Part shown: piece after piece, positions 6,811 through 64,000 of the stretch | How positions within the stretch are numbered: the stretch's first letter is position 1 | Layout of the letters: every line of letters starts with the position of its first letter | Source: Escherichia coli | Lineage (GTDB): Bacteria > Pseudomonadota > Gammaproteobacteria > Enterobacterales > Enterobacteriaceae | Reading direction: 5' to 3' (one strand) | Assembly: GCF_050920415.1 (NCBI RefSeq) | Contig: NZ_CP169309.1 | Length of the DNA stretch: 64,000 nt | Notes under the pieces: model-generated | What the model was told of the DNA's origin: nothing | Databases searched by the model: none | The model's input: only the letters and a program-made list of their open reading frames with translations | Position numbers and translations under genes: made by a program

Positions 6811-7938
6811 TTGAATTACCAAATGATTACCACGGACGATGCGCTGGCTTCTTTGTGTGAAGCTGTCCGTGCCTTTCCGGCGATAGCCCTGGATACTGAA
6901 TTTGTTCGTACGCGCACCTATTACCCGCAGCTGGGTCTAATTCAACTTTTCGATGGCGAGCATCTGGCGCTAATTGATCCTCTCGTGATCACCGACTGGT
7001 CACCGCTGAAAGCGATCCTGCGCGATCCGTCCATCACAAAATTTCTCCATGCAGGCAGTGAAGATCTGGAAGTGTTCCTCAATGTCTTTGGCGAATTACC
7101 ACAACCCCTGATTGACACGCAAATCCTTGCTGCCTTCTGCGGACGCCCGATGTCATGGGGTTTTGCTTCCATGGTGGAAGAGTATTCCGGCGTTACGCTG
7201 GACAAGAGTGAATCGCGCACCGACTGGCTGGCCAGACCGCTGACTGAACGTCAGTGTGAATACGCAGCGGCGGATGTCTGGTATCTGTTACCGATCACCG
7301 CAAAGCTTATGGTAGAAACGGAGGCCTCCGGCTGGCTACCTGCGGCGCTGGATGAATGCCGCCTGATGCAAATGCGTCGTCAGGAAGTCGTTGCGCCGGA
7401 AGATGCCTGGCGTGATATCACCAATGCCTGGCAGTTACGCACACGCCAACTGGCCTGTCTGCAACTGTTAGCCGATTGGCGACTGCGTAAGGCGCGGGAG
7501 CGCGATCTGGCGGTGAACTTTGTCGTGCGTGAAGAGCATTTGTGGTCGGTAGCGCGTTATATGCCGGGAAGTTTAGGCGAACTGGACAGCCTGGGCTTAT
7601 CCGGTAGCGAAATCCGCTTTCACGGTAAAACGCTGCTGGCGCTGGTGGAAAAAGCGCAGACATTGCCGGAAGAGGCCTTACCGCAGCCGATGCTTAACCT
7701 GATGGACATGCCGGGTTATCGTAAAGCGTTTAAAGCGATTAAGTCGCTGATTACTGACGTGAGCGAAACACACAAGATCAGCGTCGAATTGCTGGCATCG
7801 CGTCGGCAAATCAACCAGCTGCTGAACTGGCACTGGAAACTGAAACCGCAGAACAATTTGCCGGAGCTGATTTCCGGCTGGCGTGGTGAGCTGATGGCGG
7901 AAGCATTACACAATTTATTGCAGGAATATCCACAGTAA
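6811..7938 (+). CDS. rnd: Ribonuclease D (375 aa), TTG start
   Basis: ORF track; DEDDy 3'-5' exonuclease plus HRDC-like C-terminus; begins at TTG codon. Confidence 0.9.
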   Translation: MNYQMITTDDALASLCEAVRAFPAIALDTEFVRTRTYYPQLGLIQLFDGEHLALIDPLVITDWSPLKAILRDPSITKFLHAGSEDLEVFLNVFGELPQPLIDTQILAAFCGRPMSWGFASMVEEYSGVTLDKSESRTDWLARPLTERQCEYAAADVWYLLPITAKLMVETEASGWLPAALDECRLMQMRRQEVVAPEDAWRDITNAWQLRTRQLACLQLLADWRLRKARERDLAVNFVVREEHLWSVARYMPGSLGELDSLGLSGSEIRFHGKTLLALVEKAQTLPEEALPQPMLNLMDMPGYRKAFKAIKSLITDVSETHKISVELLASRRQINQLLNWHWKLKPQNNLPELISGWRGELMAEALHNLLQEYPQ

Positions 7939-7991: not shown

Positions 7992-8957
7992 CTACAAATC
8001 CAACACCAGGCGTTTACCCTTCGCGCGTGAACAACAGATCAACATACTTTGCTGGCTGGCACGCTCTTCATCGCTAAAATACTGATCCCGATGGTCAGCT
8101 TCACCTTCCAGTATTGCCGTTTCGCAGGTTCCGCATACCCCTTCACGACATAAACATTCCACTTTCGCTGCTTTATTATTTTCAATAACCTGCAAAATAG
8201 TCATCTCTTCCGGCACCACAAACTCTTTACCGGAACGGGCAAGCACCAGCGTAAATGCATCGCCGGTTTTGTCTTCGATAGCAAATTGCTCAAAGTGCAG
8301 CGTATCGGTGACGATGTCCAGACGCCCAGCTTCACTTCTTACCGCCTCATTTAGCGCCTCGGGGCCACAGGTATAAACATGTGTGCCAGGTTCGATATCC
8401 GCCAATAATCGCGCTAATTCCAGTCGTGTTCCGGTTGATGAATGATGCAAATGGACTTTCTCGGCCTGCGGATGCTGGACTAGCTCATCACGAAATGCGC
8501 AACTTTCTGGATTTCGCGAGCAGTAATGTAACTGCCAGTCGACGTCGCTGTATTGCAACTCTGCCATGTGCGACAGGAAAGGGGTGATACCAATACCGCC
8601 CGCGATAAACAGATGCTTTCTGGCCGAGGGAATTAGCGCAAACAGGTTATTCGGCGTTGAAATCGTTAACCGATCGCCAGCCTTCACTTTCTGATGTAAA
8701 AAACGCGAACCACCGCGCGAATTTTCTTCCAGTCGAACGGCAATCTGATAACGAGACGTATCGAGTGGCGAACTCAGCAGTGAGTACGCATTGCTGTACT
8801 GGTTATCACCATCGGCCATCTGCACAATGATGTGACTTCCGCCGTTGAACGCAGGCAGCGGTTTGCCCTCAGTTGCCACCAGCGTGAAGCGTTTCACCTG
8901 TTCGGTAAGCGGTTCAACCTGGCTCACCTGTACTTCAAACATTTGGTAGTTTGACAT
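7992..8957 (-). CDS. yeaX: Carnitine monooxygenase reductase subunit (FNR-type flavin reductase with plant-type 2Fe-2S domain)
   Basis: ORF track 321 aa; C-terminal CREGVCGTCE ferredoxin motif; synteny with yeaW. Confidence 0.85.
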   Translation of the reverse strand: MSNYQMFEVQVSQVEPLTEQVKRFTLVATEGKPLPAFNGGSHIIVQMADGDNQYSNAYSLLSSPLDTSRYQIAVRLEENSRGGSRFLHQKVKAGDRLTISTPNNLFALIPSARKHLFIAGGIGITPFLSHMAELQYSDVDWQLHYCSRNPESCAFRDELVQHPQAEKVHLHHSSTGTRLELARLLADIEPGTHVYTCGPEALNEAVRSEAGRLDIVTDTLHFEQFAIEDKTGDAFTLVLARSGKEFVVPEEMTILQVIENNKAAKVECLCREGVCGTCETAILEGEADHRDQYFSDEERASQQSMLICCSRAKGKRLVLDL

Positions 8958-19449: not shown

Positions 19450-20271
19450 ATGATGCACAGGTTGAATCTCAATGGCTATGAACCCGACCGACACCATGAA
19501 GCCGCGGTCGCATTTTGTATTCACGCCGGAACGGATGAGTTAACCAGTCCTGTACATCAGCACCGCAAAGGGCAGCTGATACTGGCGCTACATGGTGCAA
19601 TTACCTGTACGGTGGAAAATGCGTTGTGGATGGTGCCGCCGCAATATGCGGTTTGGATACCGGGAGGGGTGGAACATAGCAATCAAGTGACAGCTAACGC
19701 TGAACTCTGTTTTTTGTTTATAGAGCCCAGCGCAGTGACAATGCCGACAACATGTTGCACATTGAAAATATCGCCCTTATGCCGGGAATTAATTTTAACC
19801 CTGGCAAACAGGACGACGACTCAGCGTGCTGAGCCGATGACCCGCAGATTAATTCAGGTCCTGTTTGATGAACTCCCTCAGCAGCCACAACAACAGCTGC
19901 ACCTGCCCGTTTCTTCTCATCCTAAAATCCGCACGATGGTGGAGATGATGGCGAAAGAGCCCGTTGAGTGGGGCTCATTGGGGCAATGGGCTGGCTTTTT
20001 TGCGATGAGTGAACGCAATCTTGCCCGGCTGATAGTGAAAGAGACGGGGTTGAGTTTTCGCCAGTGGCGTCAGCAGTTACAGCTGATTATGGCGCTTCAG
20101 GGATTAGTGAAAGGCGATACTGTACAGAAAGTTGCTCATACGCTGGGGTATGATTCAACAACGGCCTTTATTACTATGTTTAAGAAAGGCCTGGGGCAAA
20201 CGCCAGGCCGATATATTGCGGGATTAACTACTGTTTCCCCACAATCAGCGAAACCAGACCCGCGGCAATAA
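19450..20271 (+). CDS. yeaM: AraC-family transcriptional regulator YeaM (NimR)
   Basis: ORF track 273 aa; cupin N-terminus plus AraC HTH C-terminus. Confidence 0.85.
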
Positions 20272-20674
20272 GCGGGCCAACCGGTACGCCGCGAAACAGC
20301 GCCACGCCCAAAACAGTGCCCACCAGCAGCCCGGCGACCAGTTGCGGCTGGCTGCCCATTAACGTCACGCCGCGCCCACCTAGCCAGGAGACAATAACGC
20401 CTACTGCAATTGCCACCAGCGATTTCCAGTTCAGAAACGAGTGAATCAGGGTTGAGGGCGGTAGCGTCCCGCTGGCGATGGGGGCCATAACGCCAATCGT
20501 CAGAATGATTATCCCGATACTTAGCCCCTGTTTTTCAATCCACGGGAAAAAGGTGCTTAACGGTGTGACGCGGACAATGATTAACACCAGAATTGAAACG
20601 GCCACAGTGGTGTTATGACTGATAAAGCCCAGCGCAGCTAACCCGAGCAGGATCAGCAAAGTGACATCAAACAT
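20228..20674 (-). CDS. yeaL: DUF441 inner-membrane protein YeaL
   Basis: ORF track 148 aa; all-TM sequence; 3' end overlaps yeaM 3' end. Confidence 0.8.
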
Positions 20675-20842: not shown

Positions 20843-20947
20843 ATGAACGATCAAATGTTCGTTGAGACACTGATTATCACGTCATCGTTTTTTGTTATTG
20901 CTGTTGTGCTGGTTTTGTCCGTTCTGCTTATTGAACGGACAGGCTAG
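20843..20947 (+). CDS. yoaI: Small membrane protein YoaI (34 aa)
   Basis: [37 protein letters not shown] read from sequence; not in ORF track. Confidence 0.6.
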
Positions 20948-21451
20948 TTACGCAGTGCGGCGGAAATTGACCAGTTCTGGTTGCGCAATGCGCAAATAAT
21001 CCGCAGTTTTCAAAATAACGGATTTATTCAGCATGCCTGCATTAAAGGCGATTTCATCGAATCGCTCGAAGAGCAATGGGTCGGCGACCAGTTTGAGTTT
21101 TGGATGGAAGCTGAAAGGGGGGATCGCGCCGAAGACACAGCCTGTGAGTTCATCGACTTCCGCCGGGCTGGCCAACGAAGCGCGTAATCCGCCTATATGG
21201 CTGGCGAGTTGGCTCAGATCGGCCTGTTGATCGGCCGCGAGGATCGCCAGAACATGTTGATTTACACCATTGCCTTTGACTTTACATACCAGTGCCTTAG
21301 CCCCCTGGCCTAAAGCGGTGCCACGAATTTCTGACACCGCTTCACATTTACCTACCGCTTCATGGGTAACGACGCGGAAGTCAGCACCTTCTTGTGATAA
21401 TAAAGCGATTAACCGCTGATGCGTCACGCTTCCTTTAGCCATTTCAGTCAT
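20948..21451 (-). CDS. yeaK: YbaK/ProX-like aminoacyl-tRNA deacylase YeaK
   Basis: ORF track 167 aa. Confidence 0.85.
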   Translation of the reverse strand: MTEMAKGSVTHQRLIALLSQEGADFRVVTHEAVGKCEAVSEIRGTALGQGAKALVCKVKGNGVNQHVLAILAADQQADLSQLASHIGGLRASLASPAEVDELTGCVFGAIPPFSFHPKLKLVADPLLFERFDEIAFNAGMLNKSVILKTADYLRIAQPELVNFRRTA

Positions 21452-28552: not shown

Positions 28553-29299
28553 GTGACCAAACTCAAACTTCTGGCACTTGGAGTGCTTATCGCAACGTCT
28601 GCAGGCGTAGCGCACGCTGAAGGTAAATTTTCCCTGGGCGCAGGCGTAGGTGTCGTTGAACACCCATATAAAGATTACGATACCGATGTTTACCCAGTAC
28701 CGGTAATCAACTATGAAGGCGATAACTTCTGGTTCCGTGGCTTAGGTGGTGGTTACTACCTGTGGAATGACGCAACGGATAAACTTTCAATTACCGCTTA
28801 CTGGTCGCCGCTTTACTTCAAAGCTAAAGACAGTGGCGATCACCAAATGCGTCACCTGGATGACCGTAAGAGCACCATGATGGCTGGTCTGTCTTATGCT
28901 CACTTTACCCAGTACGGTTACCTGCGTACCACCCTGGCTGGCGATACCCTGGATAACAGCAACGGCATCGTCTGGGATATGGCCTGGTTGTATCGTTACA
29001 CCAACGGTGGCCTGACCGTGACTCCGGGTATTGGTGTGCAGTGGAACAGCGAAAACCAGAACGAATACTATTATGGCGTATCGCGCAAAGAGTCTGCGCG
29101 CAGCGGTCTGCGTGGCTATAACCCGAACGACAGCTGGAGCCCTTACCTGGAGCTAAGTGCCAGCTACAACTTCCTCGGTGACTGGAGTGTTTACGGTACC
29201 GCGCGCTACACCCGTCTGTCTGATGAAGTTACTGACAGCCCAATGGTGGATAAATCCTGGACTGGCCTGATTTCTACCGGGATCACCTACAAATTCTGA
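28553..29299 (+). CDS. mipA: MltA-interacting outer-membrane protein MipA, GTG start
   Basis: ORF track 248 aa; signal peptide, beta-barrel-like sequence ending in aromatic residue. Confidence 0.9.
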   Translation: MTKLKLLALGVLIATSAGVAHAEGKFSLGAGVGVVEHPYKDYDTDVYPVPVINYEGDNFWFRGLGGGYYLWNDATDKLSITAYWSPLYFKAKDSGDHQMRHLDDRKSTMMAGLSYAHFTQYGYLRTTLAGDTLDNSNGIVWDMAWLYRYTNGGLTVTPGIGVQWNSENQNEYYYGVSRKESARSGLRGYNPNDSWSPYLELSASYNFLGDWSVYGTARYTRLSDEVTDSPMVDKSWTGLISTGITYKF

Positions 29300-44169: not shown

Positions 44170-44300
44170 GATATTGATATGAATGATATCGAAAGAGCAA
44201 AAGTATATACGTGAGGGGCAGCGAGCGCACCTGGATACTCTGTGGATATGAGAAAAGTCCGGCAGAACGGAGGGATTAGTGTCCCGCCGGAGAAAAGTGG

Positions 44301-45023
44301 TTAATCCTGCAACGCATAGGTTACGGTGGTGACTACGCGTACCGTTTTATTAATCGCCGTAGGATCATCTTCATCACTGCCACTGGCGAAGATCTGGAAC
44401 ACGCCTTGTGAGGCATCGCTAATTGACCCCACCTGGCTACCTGAGTCCGTTGCAAATTGTAATGCTGCGTTGCGTGCATCTTTGGTGGCGGCGGCAATCA
44501 TCTCAGCGCGCAGTGCGCCAATACCATTAAAGCGATAGGCGACTTTGCTCTCAGCGATAGCGCCCTCCGTAGCGACTTGCAGTTCGTTTAATTTCGCGAC
44601 GACTTTTTCGACAGCAGCAACATTATGGGTTTTTATCGTCACTGACCCGTCTGCGTTATAGCGTGGCATTGTGGGATCATCTTTCAGATAAAAGGAATCA
44701 GTTCGCTTGCTTGTCCATTGGCCCAGGGTTATCTCTTTCTCGTTAATCCCCTGAGCATTGAGTTCGGCAACAATTTTTTTCTGCGCGTCTTCCAGTTTCG
44801 GGAACAGTTCGCCGGGTATATTACCCTTAAAGTTAATCGCAATTGTTAATTCTGCCGTATCTGCGCGAACTTCTTTTTCAGAAAGCCCACGCACATTTAC
44901 ATAACGGTTATTGGTTTTTAAATGTTTAACACCATCGCCAACAAAATAACCACAGGCGCTAATCCCCAGTCCGAGGACGATAGCGGCAATTAAAGAGGGG
45001 GCCTTATTCACTGATGACTCCAT
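44301..45023 (-). CDS. Hypothetical exported or membrane-anchored protein, SIMPL/DUF541-like (about 239 aa; ORF extends to 45113)
   Basis: ORF track 44301..45113 (-); N-terminal hydrophobic segment APSLIAAIVLGLGISACGYFV; resemblance to SIMPL proteins (BP26/YggE type) is by eye only; a gene here is not expected from K-12 order. Confidence 0.55.
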   Translation of the reverse strand: MESSVNKAPSLIAAIVLGLGISACGYFVGDGVKHLKTNNRYVNVRGLSEKEVRADTAELTIAINFKGNIPGELFPKLEDAQKKIVAELNAQGINEKEITLGQWTSKRTDSFYLKDDPTMPRYNADGSVTIKTHNVAAVEKVVAKLNELQVATEGAIAESKVAYRFNGIGALRAEMIAAATKDARNAALQFATDSGSQVGSISDASQGVFQIFASGSDEDDPTAINKTVRVVTTVTYALQD

Positions 45024-50815: not shown

Positions 50816-50837
50816 TGCTCTGATGCAGTCAGTTTTC

Positions 50838-50872
50838 GTAGGCCAGATAAGGCGTTCACGCCGCATCTGGCA
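50838..50872. repeat. REP element in topB-gdhA convergent spacer
   Basis: GTAGGCCAGATAAGGCGTTCACGCCGCATCTGGCA, close to canonical REP sequence. Confidence 0.7.
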
Positions 50873-50898
50873 TAAACGCCTGAAACGGCGCTAATGAC

Positions 50899-52242
50899 TT
50901 AAATCACACCCTGCGCCAGCATCGCATCGGCAACCTTCACAAAACCGGCAATGTTCGCGCCCTGCACGTAGTTGGTTTGCTCACCTTCACCACCATGCTC
51001 AACACAGGCATGGTGGATATCCAGCATGATGTGATGCAAACGTGCGTCAACTTTCTCGGCTTTCCAGCCCAGGCGCGCAGCGTTTTGCGCCATTTCCAGG
51101 CCGGATGTAGCTACGCCACCAGCATTAGCCGCTTTACCCGGTGCAAACAGTACGCCTGCCTGCTGGAACAGTTCAGTCGCTTCGATGGTGGTCGGCATAT
51201 TTGCCCCTTCGGCGACGGCTTTAACGCCATTGGCGATAAGCTGATGCGCGGCGTCTACATCCAGTTCGTTCTGGGTGGCGCAAGGCAGGGCGATATCAAC
51301 CGGTACAGACCACGGCTGTTGGCCTTCGAGATAGACCAGGCCAAATTTTTTGGCGTAATCTGCCACTCGACCATCGCGGCTGGCTTTGATTTCGATAAGA
51401 CGTGCCAGTTTCTCTTTAGTGAATCCGCTTTCATCAACGACAGTGCCACTGGAGTCTGACGCAGTAATCACACGGGCACCAAATTCCATCGCTTTTTCGA
51501 TAGCGTACTGAGCGACGTTGCCGGAGCCAGAAACGGAAACGCGCATCCCTTCAAAACCCATACCGTGGCGTTTTAGCATTGCCTCGGTGAAATAAACCAG
51601 ACCGTAGCCGGTTGCTTCCGGGCGAATAAGACTGCCGCCAAAAGAAAGCCCCTTACCGGTGAAGACGCAGGCGGTATTGTTGGAGAGCTTTTTCATCATC
51701 CCCGCCATAAAGCCGACTTCACGACCACCAACGCCGATATCACCTGCCGGAACGTCGGTATCTGCGCCCAGGTGGCGATACAGTTCAGTCATTAGCGCCT
51801 GGCAGAACCGCATCACTTCGCCTTCGCTTTTCCCTTTCGGGTCGAAATCGCTGCCGCCTTTACCACCGCCCATCGGCAGAGTTGTCAGGGCATTTTTGAA
51901 GGTTTGTTCAAAGCCGAGGAATTTGAGAATGGAGAGATTTACCGATGGATGGAAGCGCATACCACCTTTGTACGGGCCGATGGCGGAGCTGAACTGCACG
52001 CGCCATGCACGGTTGACCTGTACCTGGTTGCGATCGTCAACCCATACCACGCGAAACTGGATCACGCGCTCCGGTTCAACCAGACGCTCCAGTAATGACA
52101 TCTGACGATATTTTGGATTTTGTTCAAGAAAAGGCCAGAGTGTGGTCATTACTTCACGAACGGCTTGCGCGAACTCGGTTTGATTCGGGTCGCGCTTTTG
52201 GACATGGTTGAGGAATGACTCCAGAGAATATGTCTGATCCAT
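50899..52242 (-). CDS. gdhA: NADP-specific glutamate dehydrogenase
   Basis: ORF track 447 aa; GGGKGG motif. Confidence 0.95.
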   Translation of the reverse strand: MDQTYSLESFLNHVQKRDPNQTEFAQAVREVMTTLWPFLEQNPKYRQMSLLERLVEPERVIQFRVVWVDDRNQVQVNRAWRVQFSSAIGPYKGGMRFHPSVNLSILKFLGFEQTFKNALTTLPMGGGKGGSDFDPKGKSEGEVMRFCQALMTELYRHLGADTDVPAGDIGVGGREVGFMAGMMKKLSNNTACVFTGKGLSFGGSLIRPEATGYGLVYFTEAMLKRHGMGFEGMRVSVSGSGNVAQYAIEKAMEFGARVITASDSSGTVVDESGFTKEKLARLIEIKASRDGRVADYAKKFGLVYLEGQQPWSVPVDIALPCATQNELDVDAAHQLIANGVKAVAEGANMPTTIEATELFQQAGVLFAPGKAANAGGVATSGLEMAQNAARLGWKAEKVDARLHHIMLDIHHACVEHGGEGEQTNYVQGANIAGFVKVADAMLAQGVI

Positions 52243-52477
52243 AGATATAAAACCCTTATATATTAATACGATTATGCTTATGTTGTTTATGTCATGTGCT
52301 TTTGCAGTTTTCGACTATACCATCAAGAATGTGACGGTAAGCAAGAAAAAAATGACTCACGAAAGCAAATTAATAACGGGAGAAATCTCATAACCAAAAG
52401 CGATAACTCAGACGCTAAAGTTTTGCCGCCAGGCTACCGTTATCAGTAGCAGAGACAAAAACGTTAAGGAGTTCCCT

Positions 52478-52750
52478 GTGAGTCGAGCATTGTTCGCCCT
52501 AGCATTGGCATTTCCATTCATTGCACTGGCTAACCCGCATTATCGTCCGGACGTGGAGGTAAACGTACCGCCTGAAGTATTCAGTTCAGGCGGGCAGTCA
52601 GCGCAGCCCTGTACTCAGTGCTGCGTCTATCAGGATCAAAACTATTCTGAAGGGGCGGTAATTAAAGCCGAAGGAATACTGCTGCAATGCCAGCGGGATG
52701 ACAAAACTCTTAGCACTAATCCGCTGGTCTGGCGGCGCGTAAAGCCATAA
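52478..52750 (+). CDS. ynjH: Secreted small protein YnjH (DUF1496), GTG start
   Basis: ORF track 90 aa; signal peptide; 3' end overlaps nudG 3' end. Confidence 0.7.
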   Translation: MSRALFALALAFPFIALANPHYRPDVEVNVPPEVFSSGGQSAQPCTQCCVYQDQNYSEGAVIKAEGILLQCQRDDKTLSTNPLVWRRVKP

Positions 52751-53123
52751 ACGCCTCTAATAGTGGAATGTCAGCAGGGGCCAGCGGATATTGCAGCGCC
52801 TCTTCAGGTGAGCACCAGACCAGCGCCTGATGTTCATGTGCCTGTAACGTCCCGTGGAAGTCGGGTACGTGCCAGGCATGAAGATGGATAATCCGCCCCG
52901 ACACTTCTCGCTGATGGCTGGCAACATACTCACCCACAGTTGCTTCGATGCCCAATTCTTCGCGTAACTCACGCACCAGCGCCTGCCGCTGGCTTTCATC
53001 CGGCTCGACTTTACCACCGGCAAACTCCCATAATCCCGCCTGATCGCTATGGGCGGGGCGTTGAGCGAGTAAAATTTTGCCATCACGTTCGATGATGGCG
53101 GCAACAACTTCAATCATATTCAT
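52716..53123 (-). CDS. nudG: Nudix hydrolase NudG (CTP/5-methyl-dCTP pyrophosphohydrolase)
   Basis: ORF track 135 aa; Nudix box GGKVEPDESQRQALVRELREELGI. Confidence 0.85.
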   Translation of the reverse strand: MNMIEVVAAIIERDGKILLAQRPAHSDQAGLWEFAGGKVEPDESQRQALVRELREELGIEATVGEYVASHQREVSGRIIHLHAWHVPDFHGTLQAHEHQALVWCSPEEALQYPLAPADIPLLEAFMALRAARPAD

Positions 53124-53209
53124 AAATTACACACGGGCAGATAAGCGAAAAATGCCATAATATCCGCACTGTTGCTCAATCAGAAAGGCTTTATATTTAA
53201 GGAGTGCCT

Positions 53210-53830
53210 GTGTTAGACCGCCATCTTCATCCCCGAATTAAACCTTTGTTGCATCAGTGTGTGAAGGTTCTGGATAAACCTGGTATCACGCCAGATGGTT
53301 TAACGTTAGTGGGGTTTGCTATCGGCGTGTTGGCATTGCCGTTTCTGGCACTGAGCTGGTATCTGGCGGCGCTGATTGCCATTTTACTAAACAGATTGCT
53401 TGATGGTCTGGACGGCGCGCTGGCACGGCGTCGAGGCCTCACCGACGCAGGCGGCTTTCTCGATATCTCGTTGGATTTCCTTTTTTACGCGCTGGTGCCT
53501 TTTGGGTTTATCCTCGCCGCACCGGAGCAAAACGCGCTGGCAGGCGGCTGGCTGCTGTTTGCGTTTATCGGCACGGGCAGCAGTTTTCTCGCTTTTGCTG
53601 CGCTGGCGGCGAAACATCAGATTGATAATCCCGGTTATGCGCATAAATCGTTTTATTATCTGGGCGGGTTAACCGAAGGCAGCGAGACGATTTTGCTGTT
53701 TGTTCTGAGTTGTCTCTTGCCGGCTTATTTTCCGTGGTTTGCGTGGATATTTGGCGCGCTGTGCTGGATGACGACCTTTACGCGGGTGTGGAGTGGATAT
53801 CTGACGCTGAAGTCGCTCCAGCGTCAGTAG
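53210..53830 (+). CDS. ynjF: CDP-alcohol phosphatidyltransferase-family membrane protein YnjF, GTG start
   Basis: ORF track 53204..53830; AGGAG SD 5 nt before GTG at 53210; DGxxAR motif. Confidence 0.8.
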   Translation: MLDRHLHPRIKPLLHQCVKVLDKPGITPDGLTLVGFAIGVLALPFLALSWYLAALIAILLNRLLDGLDGALARRRGLTDAGGFLDISLDFLFYALVPFGFILAAPEQNALAGGWLLFAFIGTGSSFLAFAALAAKHQIDNPGYAHKSFYYLGGLTEGSETILLFVLSCLLPAYFPWFAWIFGALCWMTTFTRVWSGYLTLKSLQRQ

Positions 53831-53838
53831 TTGCAATG

Positions 53839-55146
53839 TTATTTGCTGCTGTCCGGGCCGCGCTCACCGGTTGCTACGGGATTTTTCGGATCGCTGCTCC
53901 ATTCGTACCAGCCGCCGTCGTAAACGGAGACGTTATTCCAGCCCATTGCTCGTGCGTACATAAAGGTTTCGGACGCGCGCCAGCCGGTGCCGCAGTAGAA
54001 TGAAACTTGCTGATCTGGTTTGATATTCCATGCTTTCCACATAGCGGCAATATCATCGGCGCTACGCATGGTGCCATCCGGGTTATGGAAATCCTCCATA
54101 TGCGTCGAGTCGCTACCAGCGTGTCCCCAACGGGCTCCGGCTATTTCACCTTTTGGCTTAATATAGCTGTAACCACTGGTCGTACCGATAAATTCTGGCC
54201 ACGAACGAATGCTCACCAGCGATGCATCCTGGCGATGCAGCAGCCCACGGGCCTGTTCCATATCAAGCATCAACTGCGGTTGCGCCGGGATCTTCACGCC
54301 GAAATCCGGTTCAGCTTTCACTTTCGGTGGCGTTCCGCGCTCAACAGGCAGTCCCGCGTCGGACCAGGTTTGCCAGCCGCCGTCCAGCAGGCGCACATCT
54401 TTCACCCCTGCATAGAGCATAATCTGTGCTACACGCGCTGCTGCGTATACATCACGACCATATAGAATCACCGTGGTGTCATGACGAATGCCATGTTTTG
54501 CCAGCATCGCTTTCAGTTGTTCATCAGAGACTTTATTCCACAGCGGTTCGCTTTCCACTTCATTGGTATCGATGTAATCCGCGCCGGGAATATGGCTGAT
54601 AAGGTAAAGCTTAGGAGCGCCCCAGGCCGCTTCAATGACTTTCCAGTCACCGGCAGGTTTCGCTGTAACGTCTTTTCCTTGTTGCAGGTCATGCAGCCAT
54701 TGCGGATAAACCAGCTGCTCAAAGTGCGGCAGTTTTTGCAGACGGGAAGGTTCGCTTAGCGCGTCACTCAAAATGGAGATATGCGTAAAACCTGCTTTTT
54801 GCAGTCGCGTTTTGACGGCGTCGACATCTTTGTCATTACCGTACAGCGCCACCGGAGCGTCGGTTTTCAGGTTATGTTGCTTGATCCACGCGTTGAGCTG
54901 TTCGGTGCTCATTTTGTCGAGCCAGCTAGCAGAGAGGTTTAAGGCGGCAGGTTCATGACCAGAAGGGCCATTTAAGGTTTGTGGCCAGCCGTTATAAAAC
55001 GCGCTGGGGCGAGTATCTATCGCTTTGCCATTTTGTTGTTGAAGCTGGTCAAGTGTAAGAGGCTTCGCCAGTTCAGCGGCCCACGAAGAAGCGCAAGCCA
55101 GCCCTAAAGCCATTGCCAGCGCGGTCATTTGAGAAACACGTTTCAT
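53839..55146 (-). CDS. ynjE: Periplasmic multi-domain rhodanese (thiosulfate sulfurtransferase) YnjE
   Basis: ORF track 53839..55161; signal peptide; rhodanese active-site Cys (YCGTGWRAS). Confidence 0.85.
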   Translation of the reverse strand: MKRVSQMTALAMALGLACASSWAAELAKPLTLDQLQQQNGKAIDTRPSAFYNGWPQTLNGPSGHEPAALNLSASWLDKMSTEQLNAWIKQHNLKTDAPVALYGNDKDVDAVKTRLQKAGFTHISILSDALSEPSRLQKLPHFEQLVYPQWLHDLQQGKDVTAKPAGDWKVIEAAWGAPKLYLISHIPGADYIDTNEVESEPLWNKVSDEQLKAMLAKHGIRHDTTVILYGRDVYAAARVAQIMLYAGVKDVRLLDGGWQTWSDAGLPVERGTPPKVKAEPDFGVKIPAQPQLMLDMEQARGLLHRQDASLVSIRSWPEFIGTTSGYSYIKPKGEIAGARWGHAGSDSTHMEDFHNPDGTMRSADDIAAMWKAWNIKPDQQVSFYCGTGWRASETFMYARAMGWNNVSVYDGGWYEWSSDPKNPVATGERGPDSSK

Positions 55147-55212
55147 CGAAAATCCCGACATTGTAGTTTTGAGTGCGCCATTCTGAACTGACGCATTGGG
55201 AAAAACTTTGCG

Positions 55213-61882: not shown

Positions 61883-64000
<2,118 letters not shown>

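Follow-up and report, generated by a model that had tools for sequence, protein, structure and literature searches.

Convergent ynjH and nudG genes of Escherichia coli: an ancient 35-bp coding overlap with transcriptional read-through and a candidate Rho loading region

Introduction

The coding sequences of the Escherichia coli genes ynjH and nudG run tail to tail into one another. Does this arrangement represent an annotation error, a regulatory device or simply an old overlap of two genuine genes, and where does the transcription of each gene end? We addressed this question within a 64-kb window, i.e. the whole stretch of DNA that was analyzed. The overlap itself is already known: it is present in the reference annotation, in a ribosome-profiling figure and in a published table of overlapping transcripts. 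A 1-kb query centered around it gave matches in 5423 of 5426 complete E. coli genomes. The window is chromosomal, and the entire 64 kb corresponds to positions 2258061-2322060 of the RefSeq record NZ_CP169399.1 (99.99% identity), from which it differs by five substitutions and one 1-bp indel, and the boundaries of ynjH and nudG are identical in that record.

Results

Structure of the overlap

The features that define the overlap are as follows.

52716-52750, both strands: shared 35-bp segment, read from the sequence, containing the 3′ ends of ynjH and nudG
52478-52750, + strand: ynjH coding sequence from the list of open reading frames (ORFs); 90 amino acids (aa), GTG start codon, TAA stop codon at 52748-52750
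52716-53123, − strand: nudG coding sequence from the ORF list; 135 aa, TAG stop codon, which is the reverse complement of 52716-52718

The original prediction of a 35-bp tail-to-tail overlap between ynjH (+) and nudG (−) at positions 52716-52750 was borne out by both the ORF list and the RefSeq annotation; the two genes form a convergent overlapping pair whose coding 3′ ends share bases. The RefSeq record of K-12 MG1655 is annotated alike [nudG at 1841490-1841897 (+), ynjH at 1841863-1842135 (−)]. On the + strand the shared segment encodes YnjH from Thr80 (two of its three bases) to Pro90, followed by TAA, and on the − strand it encodes NudG from Phe125 (two of its three bases) to Asp135, followed by TAG. 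The reading frames are placed such that third codon positions of ynjH face second positions of nudG and vice versa, and first positions face each other; the overlap therefore contains no site at which a substitution could be silent for both genes.

It had been suggested that shorter reading frames of ynjH or nudG might remove the overlap. This was excluded: alternative start codons are unable to abolish a 3′ overlap, because its extent is set by the stop codons alone, and both frames are supported by the evidence presented below.

Conservation of the gene pair and unequal constraint on the shared codons

A scan for NudG, with one genome taken per species, yielded 80 loci. The addition of K-12 and the removal of loci lacking a ynjH match gave a comparison set of 79 loci, and in all 79, each carrying both genes, ynjH and nudG are convergent. 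An overlap of at least 23 bp was found in 62 of the 79 loci, originating from at least 16 named genera of the Enterobacteriaceae. The genera with overlaps of 23-44 bp include Escherichia, Citrobacter, Salmonella, Kosakonia and Kluyvera, as well as Enterobacter, Buttiauxella, Cedecea and Mangrovibacter. The most frequent lengths among the 62 loci are 41 bp (31 loci) and 35 bp (21 loci), followed by 26, 38 and 44 bp (three loci each) and 23 bp (one locus). Serratia, Yersinia and Erwinia retain the convergent pair, but there the genes either lie 4-100 bp apart or overlap by 8-12 bp. The ynjH/nudG overlap has been kept well beyond chance, and its distribution suggests that it is as old as the family Enterobacteriaceae, an estimate of age that the present analysis adds to the known annotation.

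The shared segment is unequally constrained in the two proteins. The YnjH residues encoded by it, TNPLVWRRVKP, show 94% identity, versus 70% in the preceding 45 residues (60 loci scored), and the corresponding NudG residues, MALRAARPAD, show 70% identity, versus 77% in the remainder of the protein. TNPL[VI]W is just as well conserved in Yersinia and Serratia, in which the genes do not overlap, and the constraint therefore belongs to YnjH rather than to dual coding. The shared codons are dominated by ynjH, with the NudG tail tolerating the remainder.

When positions are measured from the NPL motif, the ynjH stop codon is nearly fixed among the overlapping loci and it is the nudG stop codon that shifts. 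In the window, the latter is placed as follows.

52716-52718, − strand: nudG stop codon TAG, the complement of CTA lying across the ynjH codons Thr80-Asn81 (ACT AAT)

A synonymous change of the Thr80 codon to ACC or ACG converts this TAG into TGG or TCG, respectively; the nudG stop is lost, NudG gains two residues and the overlap becomes 41 bp long. The replacement of Val84 of YnjH by Ile84 (CTT ATC) creates TAA in the nudG frame, by which NudG loses three residues and the overlap is reduced to 26 bp. Where the nudG stop codon falls is a passive by-product of ynjH codon choice, and this dependence explains the occurrence of the 26, 35, 38, 41 and 44 bp variants among the genera. The asymmetric constraint and the codon-level account of the length variants are additions of the present analysis, and they make this locus a clean small example of a pair in which one gene dictates the codons and the stop codon of its partner moves with silent changes.

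FliA-dependent transcription of ynjH and read-through into nudG

Transcription of ynjH is initiated at a defined promoter.

52416-52450, + strand: ynjH σ28 promoter (RegulonDB ynjHp, quoted in the supplement of PMC4183435)

It is composed of TAAAGTTT (52416-52423), a 12-nt spacer and ACCGTTAT (52436-52443), with the transcription start at 52450. The σ28 motif has a score of 13/16, which was attained by 3 of 2000 shuffled sequences. ynjH is a member of the FliA (σ28) regulon, and deletion of fliA lowered its expression from 29 to 2 in RNA-seq (14-fold) and to 0.02 of the wild-type level in qPCR (about 50-fold; PMC4183435). This control by FliA is also conserved in Salmonella. Most Enterobacteriaceae loci retain a σ28-like motif equally far upstream of ynjH; it could not be recognised in the ynjH loci of Serratia, Yersinia and Erwinia.

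A second σ28-like motif (TAACGTTT, 11-nt spacer, ACTGATAA; score 13/16) was identified at 52440-52466 on the − strand. It partially overlaps the motif at 52416-52443 (+), from which it diverges on the opposite strand, and is directed to gdhA, not to ynjH. It is this − strand motif that appears, one base off K-12, as the ynjH motif in Table 2 of the FliA ChIP-seq paper.

According to the original prediction, the transcript of each gene must enter its partner. This holds insofar as the full mRNAs are complementary to each other over 35 nt or more, and for the direction from ynjH into nudG it is borne out by published strand-specific RNA-seq, in which nudG antisense exceeds sense (PMC7373196). 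In Table S1c of that study, the sense/antisense values (RPM) for nudG are 9.0/45.4 in the wild type, 3.8/29.2 in rnc-14 and 5.6/17.0 in rnc-38, i.e. an antisense:sense ratio of 3-8 fold, while those for ynjH are 80.0/2.7, 79.0/0.9 and 27.4/2.5, respectively. Arithmetic on the same data indicates that a ynjH transcript stopping at its own stop codon could account for at most ~9-10 RPM of nudG antisense. Since the recorded values are higher, the ynjH transcript must extend far into nudG. Read-through from nudG is low, in proportion to the low expression of this gene.

Overlap of the two transcripts in vivo is thus documented in the literature (PMC7373196, PMC12288877). In PMC12288877, nudG-ynjH is one of 165 convergent excludons occurring in at least 50% of 58 MG1655 transcriptomes. 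This report, the ExcludonFinder paper, was also the sole match in a full-text literature search combining nudG, antisense and Rho.

The original prediction added that antisense interference could result. It is conceivable that the pair acts as a functional convergent excludon, in which FliA-driven ynjH antisense RNA lowers NudG in motile cells, whether through colliding polymerases or through duplexes that are formed and then cleaved, and in which motility is thereby linked to the level of a modified-CTP/(p)ppGpp hydrolase. The place of nudG-ynjH on the MG1655 core list, the excess of antisense over sense RNA, the strong dependence of ynjH on FliA and its retention in Salmonella would all agree with such a putative role, but nudG is unmentioned in the main text and examined supplements of the FliA regulon study (PMC4183435). 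In the RNase III mutants rnc-14 and rnc-38, the nudG sense level shows no increase over the wild type (single samples), and the double-stranded RNA captured by p19 over nudG amounts to an unremarkable 6-35 RPM. Retention of the convergent pair across the whole order, together with a σ28-like motif whose position is kept in most Enterobacteriaceae loci having the overlap, could also be cited in favour of an excludon, as a selected regulatory arrangement would likewise show deep conservation, a conserved σ28 promoter and more antisense than sense RNA. However, the co-occurrence of promoter and overlap is confounded by phylogeny, and overlapping pairs are expected to be evolutionarily stable merely since they are hard to separate (PMC4161906, and the abstract of PMC2845580). 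We consider a functional excludon unlikely.

Similarly improbable is the specific proposal that the 3′ extension of the ynjH mRNA is a built-in antisense RNA against nudG, kept together with the σ28 promoter across the Enterobacteriaceae for that function. If it were true, motile cells would make less of the (p)ppGpp/modified-CTP hydrolase, and the phenotypes of ynjH mutants could partly be nudG effects. A transposon screen published in 2026 reported low c-di-GMP in ynjH insertion mutants (PMC13031359), a phenotype in which effects on nudG could be a confounding factor. By default, the overlap is read as having no regulatory role.

Termination of the convergent transcripts

The claim that no room is left for terminators between ynjH and nudG proved correct, given that their coding 3′ ends overlap by 35 bp. 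A consensus terminator scan of both strands of the region 52243-53363 revealed no terminator-like sites, RNA folds around the overlap were not more stable than those of shuffled sequences on either strand (z +0.45 and +0.13), and an Rfam scan of 51500-54500 gave no matches at E values up to 1. The hallmarks of a bidirectional intrinsic terminator (a G+C-rich hairpin with an A tract and a T tract) are not present at the ynjH and nudG 3′ ends.

Two perfect inverted repeats, ATCCGCTGG (52719-52727) with CCAGCGGAT (52781-52789) and CGCTGGTCTGG (52722-52732) with CCAGACCAGCG (52815-52825), could be taken as signs that a cryptic intrinsic terminator, acting in both directions and lying within the coding sequence in or close to the overlap, stops both transcripts. 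Overlapping terminators have been predicted in 146 of the 165 convergent excludons (PMC12288877), the members being unspecified. Nevertheless, the repeat arms are separated by 53 and 82 nt and are not flanked by T or A tracts, the terminator scan was empty, the folds were unexceptional, and nudG antisense RNA is several-fold more abundant than a ynjH transcript ending at the overlap would allow. Such a terminator is very improbable. The 9- and 11-nt repeats were dismissed as chance occurrences on the basis of their folds, long spacers and lack of T tracts.

Since no terminator fits between the genes or is embedded nearby, each transcript continues into the partner gene, where it forms untranslated antisense RNA. 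A segment that might end this transcription in the ynjH direction was distinguished within nudG.

52884-53056, + strand: C-rich, G-poor tract distinguished by base composition, candidate Rho loading (rut) region

This tract begins about 135 nt and ends about 305 nt beyond the ynjH stop codon, antisense to nudG. Its C/G ratio is about 2 (78-nt windows), and its peak %C−%G value of +25.6 places it in the top 0.02% of all windows of this size within the 64 kb. An untranslated RNA of at least ~80 nt that is rich in C and poor in G, as would suit Rho, is produced in the ynjH direction only; the strand of nudG read-through shows a mild C excess (C/G 1.3-1.5). These compositional features lead us to infer that ynjH read-through is ended by Rho near the 5′ end of nudG. 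The candidate loading tract is an addition of the present analysis. The SMRT-Cappable-seq supplements and the examined supplement files of the Term-seq study of Adams 2021 (eLife) contain no ynjH or nudG entry.

Only four sustained tracts of this C-rich, G-poor kind occur in the 64-kb window, the present one included: 7456-7614 (−), 8062-8239 (+), 52884-53056 (+) and 62915-63100 (−). Three of the four are located on the read-through strand just beyond a convergent gene end, i.e. at rnd/yeaX in both directions and at ynjH into nudG. This placement fits Rho loading sites inside the convergent partner, although the observation was made post hoc and the sample is small.

The NudG and YnjH proteins

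NudG, alias Orf135, is a Nudix hydrolase annotated as a CTP/5-hydroxy-CTP diphosphatase. Its NUDIX domain spans residues 4-125 (Pfam), and all 135 of its 135 residues align with PDB entry 2rrk ('CTP pyrophosphohydrolase'). The purified protein cleaves (p)ppGpp (PMC5845004). AlphaFold models of both NudG and YnjH were built on alignments of the collected loci. The NudG model (mean pLDDT 93.6) has a C-terminal helix (residues 118-130) followed by a low-confidence tail (residues 131-135); the predicted share of NudG in the overlap is the final turn and a half of this helix plus the floppy tail.

YnjH carries a signal peptide and a DUF1496 domain, the full Pfam profile of which matches residues 33-89 of 90 (E = 2.4e-24). 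An alignment of 30 diverse homologues contains 16 invariant YnjH residues, four of them cysteines (C45, C48, C49 and C71). YnjH is a small secreted protein, and its model has a confident core (residues 45-90, pLDDT about 85) with five predicted β strands, the last of which (residues 83-88, LVWRRV) lies inside the overlap and within the most highly conserved portion of YnjH. A Foldseek search of the PDB with this model gave no significant match, the best hits (E = 0.43) being small disulfide-rich von Willebrand factor/mucin modules. The YnjH protein has been detected by proteomics, and at 42 °C both its mRNA and the protein drop, alongside motility genes (PMC6551532). A strand-specific Ribo-seq figure in the GWIPS-viz 2018 paper uses nudG/ynjH as its example of overlapping genes (PMC5753223).

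Taken together, the Pfam matches, PDB 2rrk, the conservation of the C-termini and the published proteomic and Ribo-seq data indicate that both frames are genuine up to their annotated stop codons. An annotation artefact, with one frame wrong or unexpressed, might be suspected from the short length of ynjH, its GTG start codon and the fact that its function is not known, but it is refuted, and left with practically no probability, by the DUF1496 profile reaching residue 89 of 90, the invariant residues including the cysteines, the detection and regulation of YnjH, the Ribo-seq display, and the purification of NudG and the solution of its structure at precisely the 135-residue length.

Other convergent pairs and features of the window

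The window contains 11 convergent gene pairs, with spacings of 119, 53, 58, 21, −44, 0, 50, 92, 83, −35 and 8 bp; two of the 11 overlap and five leave no room for a terminator. The second coding overlap is the longer one: nimR (19450-20271, +) and yeaL (20228-20674, −) share 44 bp at 20228-20271. The genes yoaI and yeaK abut with zero gap at ~20947-20948, and ynjF and ynjE are 8 bp apart (53831-53838); neither pair has terminator room. Further excludons from the window listed in PMC12288877 are ynjE-ynjF, yeaL-nimR, yeaK-yoaI and yeaO-yoaF.

An intragenic σ54 site, IS23, was detected by ChIP-seq inside ynjE of K-12, with nudG as the next gene on the same strand, 1309 bp downstream (PMC4591121). 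In the window, ynjE is located as follows.

53839-55161 (window coordinates): ynjE, the gene that contains the σ54 site IS23 in K-12

Several differences from related genomes were observed. The gene ynjI (K-12 b1762) is absent from the strain analyzed, leaving a gdhA-topB spacing of 83 bp (50816-50898); about 1.3 kb of K-12 sequence near gdhA/topB has no match in the window, and the topB 3′ end adjoining 50816-50898 shows only 92.9% identity to K-12. The sole indel relative to NZ_CP169399.1 is one extra C at 28942, within mipA (28553-29299), which has an intact reading frame of 248 aa in the window and is annotated as frameshifted in NZ_CP169399.1. Between ansA and sppA, at ~44300-45010 (−), the annotation shows a gene for a SIMPL-domain protein; the K-12 map presumably has no gene at this position.

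Discussion

The most convincing explanation, which we consider highly probable, is that ynjH/nudG is an ordinary ancient overlap of two genuine genes with transcriptional read-through, in which termination by Rho and the lack of a regulatory role are inferred parts. The anatomy of the overlap, its conservation, the coupling of the codons, the absence of a terminator and, from published data, the read-through provide its firm basis.

A plausible course of events at this locus can be outlined. The FliA-driven ynjH transcript demonstrably passes well into nudG, Rho would load on the C-rich, G-poor tract that it encounters there and end the transcript, and polymerase collisions and RNA decay may contribute to ending the transcripts. 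The overlap probably persists because the separation of overlapping genes needs a duplication; its maintenance does not require regulation.

The shared bases have a practical consequence for mutant construction. Any deletion or insertion made in either gene can damage the other or de-repress it. In at least one laboratory, the primer used for the deletion of ynjH was placed inside the shared bases, which stayed intact (PMC4183435).

How does this pair compare with known systems? With noncontiguous operons (PMC12288877) it shares a layout of ynjH (+), nudG (−) and ynjF (+), in which ynjH transcription enters nudG in antisense, but ynjH/nudG/ynjF is outside the three noncontiguous operons reported there for E. 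coli.

The similarity to convergent excludons is closer. These are overlapping transcripts of neighbours on opposite strands, nudG-ynjH itself being listed, and mscL-arfA is a studied example (PMC10070815). In nudG-ynjH it is the coding sequences that overlap and not merely the untranslated regions. The outcome that defines an excludon (PMC12288877), in which interference or RNase III makes the expression of the two genes mutually exclusive, is putative for nudG-ynjH.

Once RNA polymerase passes the ynjH stop codon, the RNA becomes untranslated, C-rich and G-poor. In this respect it would resemble the untranslated antisense transcription of E. coli that is reportedly suppressed in a Rho-dependent manner, as described by Peters et al. 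in 2012. The difference is that the assignment of ynjH is a putative one, drawn from base composition.

Finally, ynjH/nudG belongs to the common class of bacterial convergent overlaps. Among the adjacent gene pairs of E. coli, 663 overlap, and 75 of these are convergent (Huvet and Stumpf 2014, PMC4161906). As in other members of this class, the partners are two genuine genes of opposite orientation with 3′ ends in common, the length of the overlap shifts via movement of a stop codon, and gene order is steadier than that of non-overlapping neighbours (PMC4161906). There is no essential difference: at 35 bp the overlap exceeds those of a few bases, and that of nimR/yeaL reaches 44 bp.
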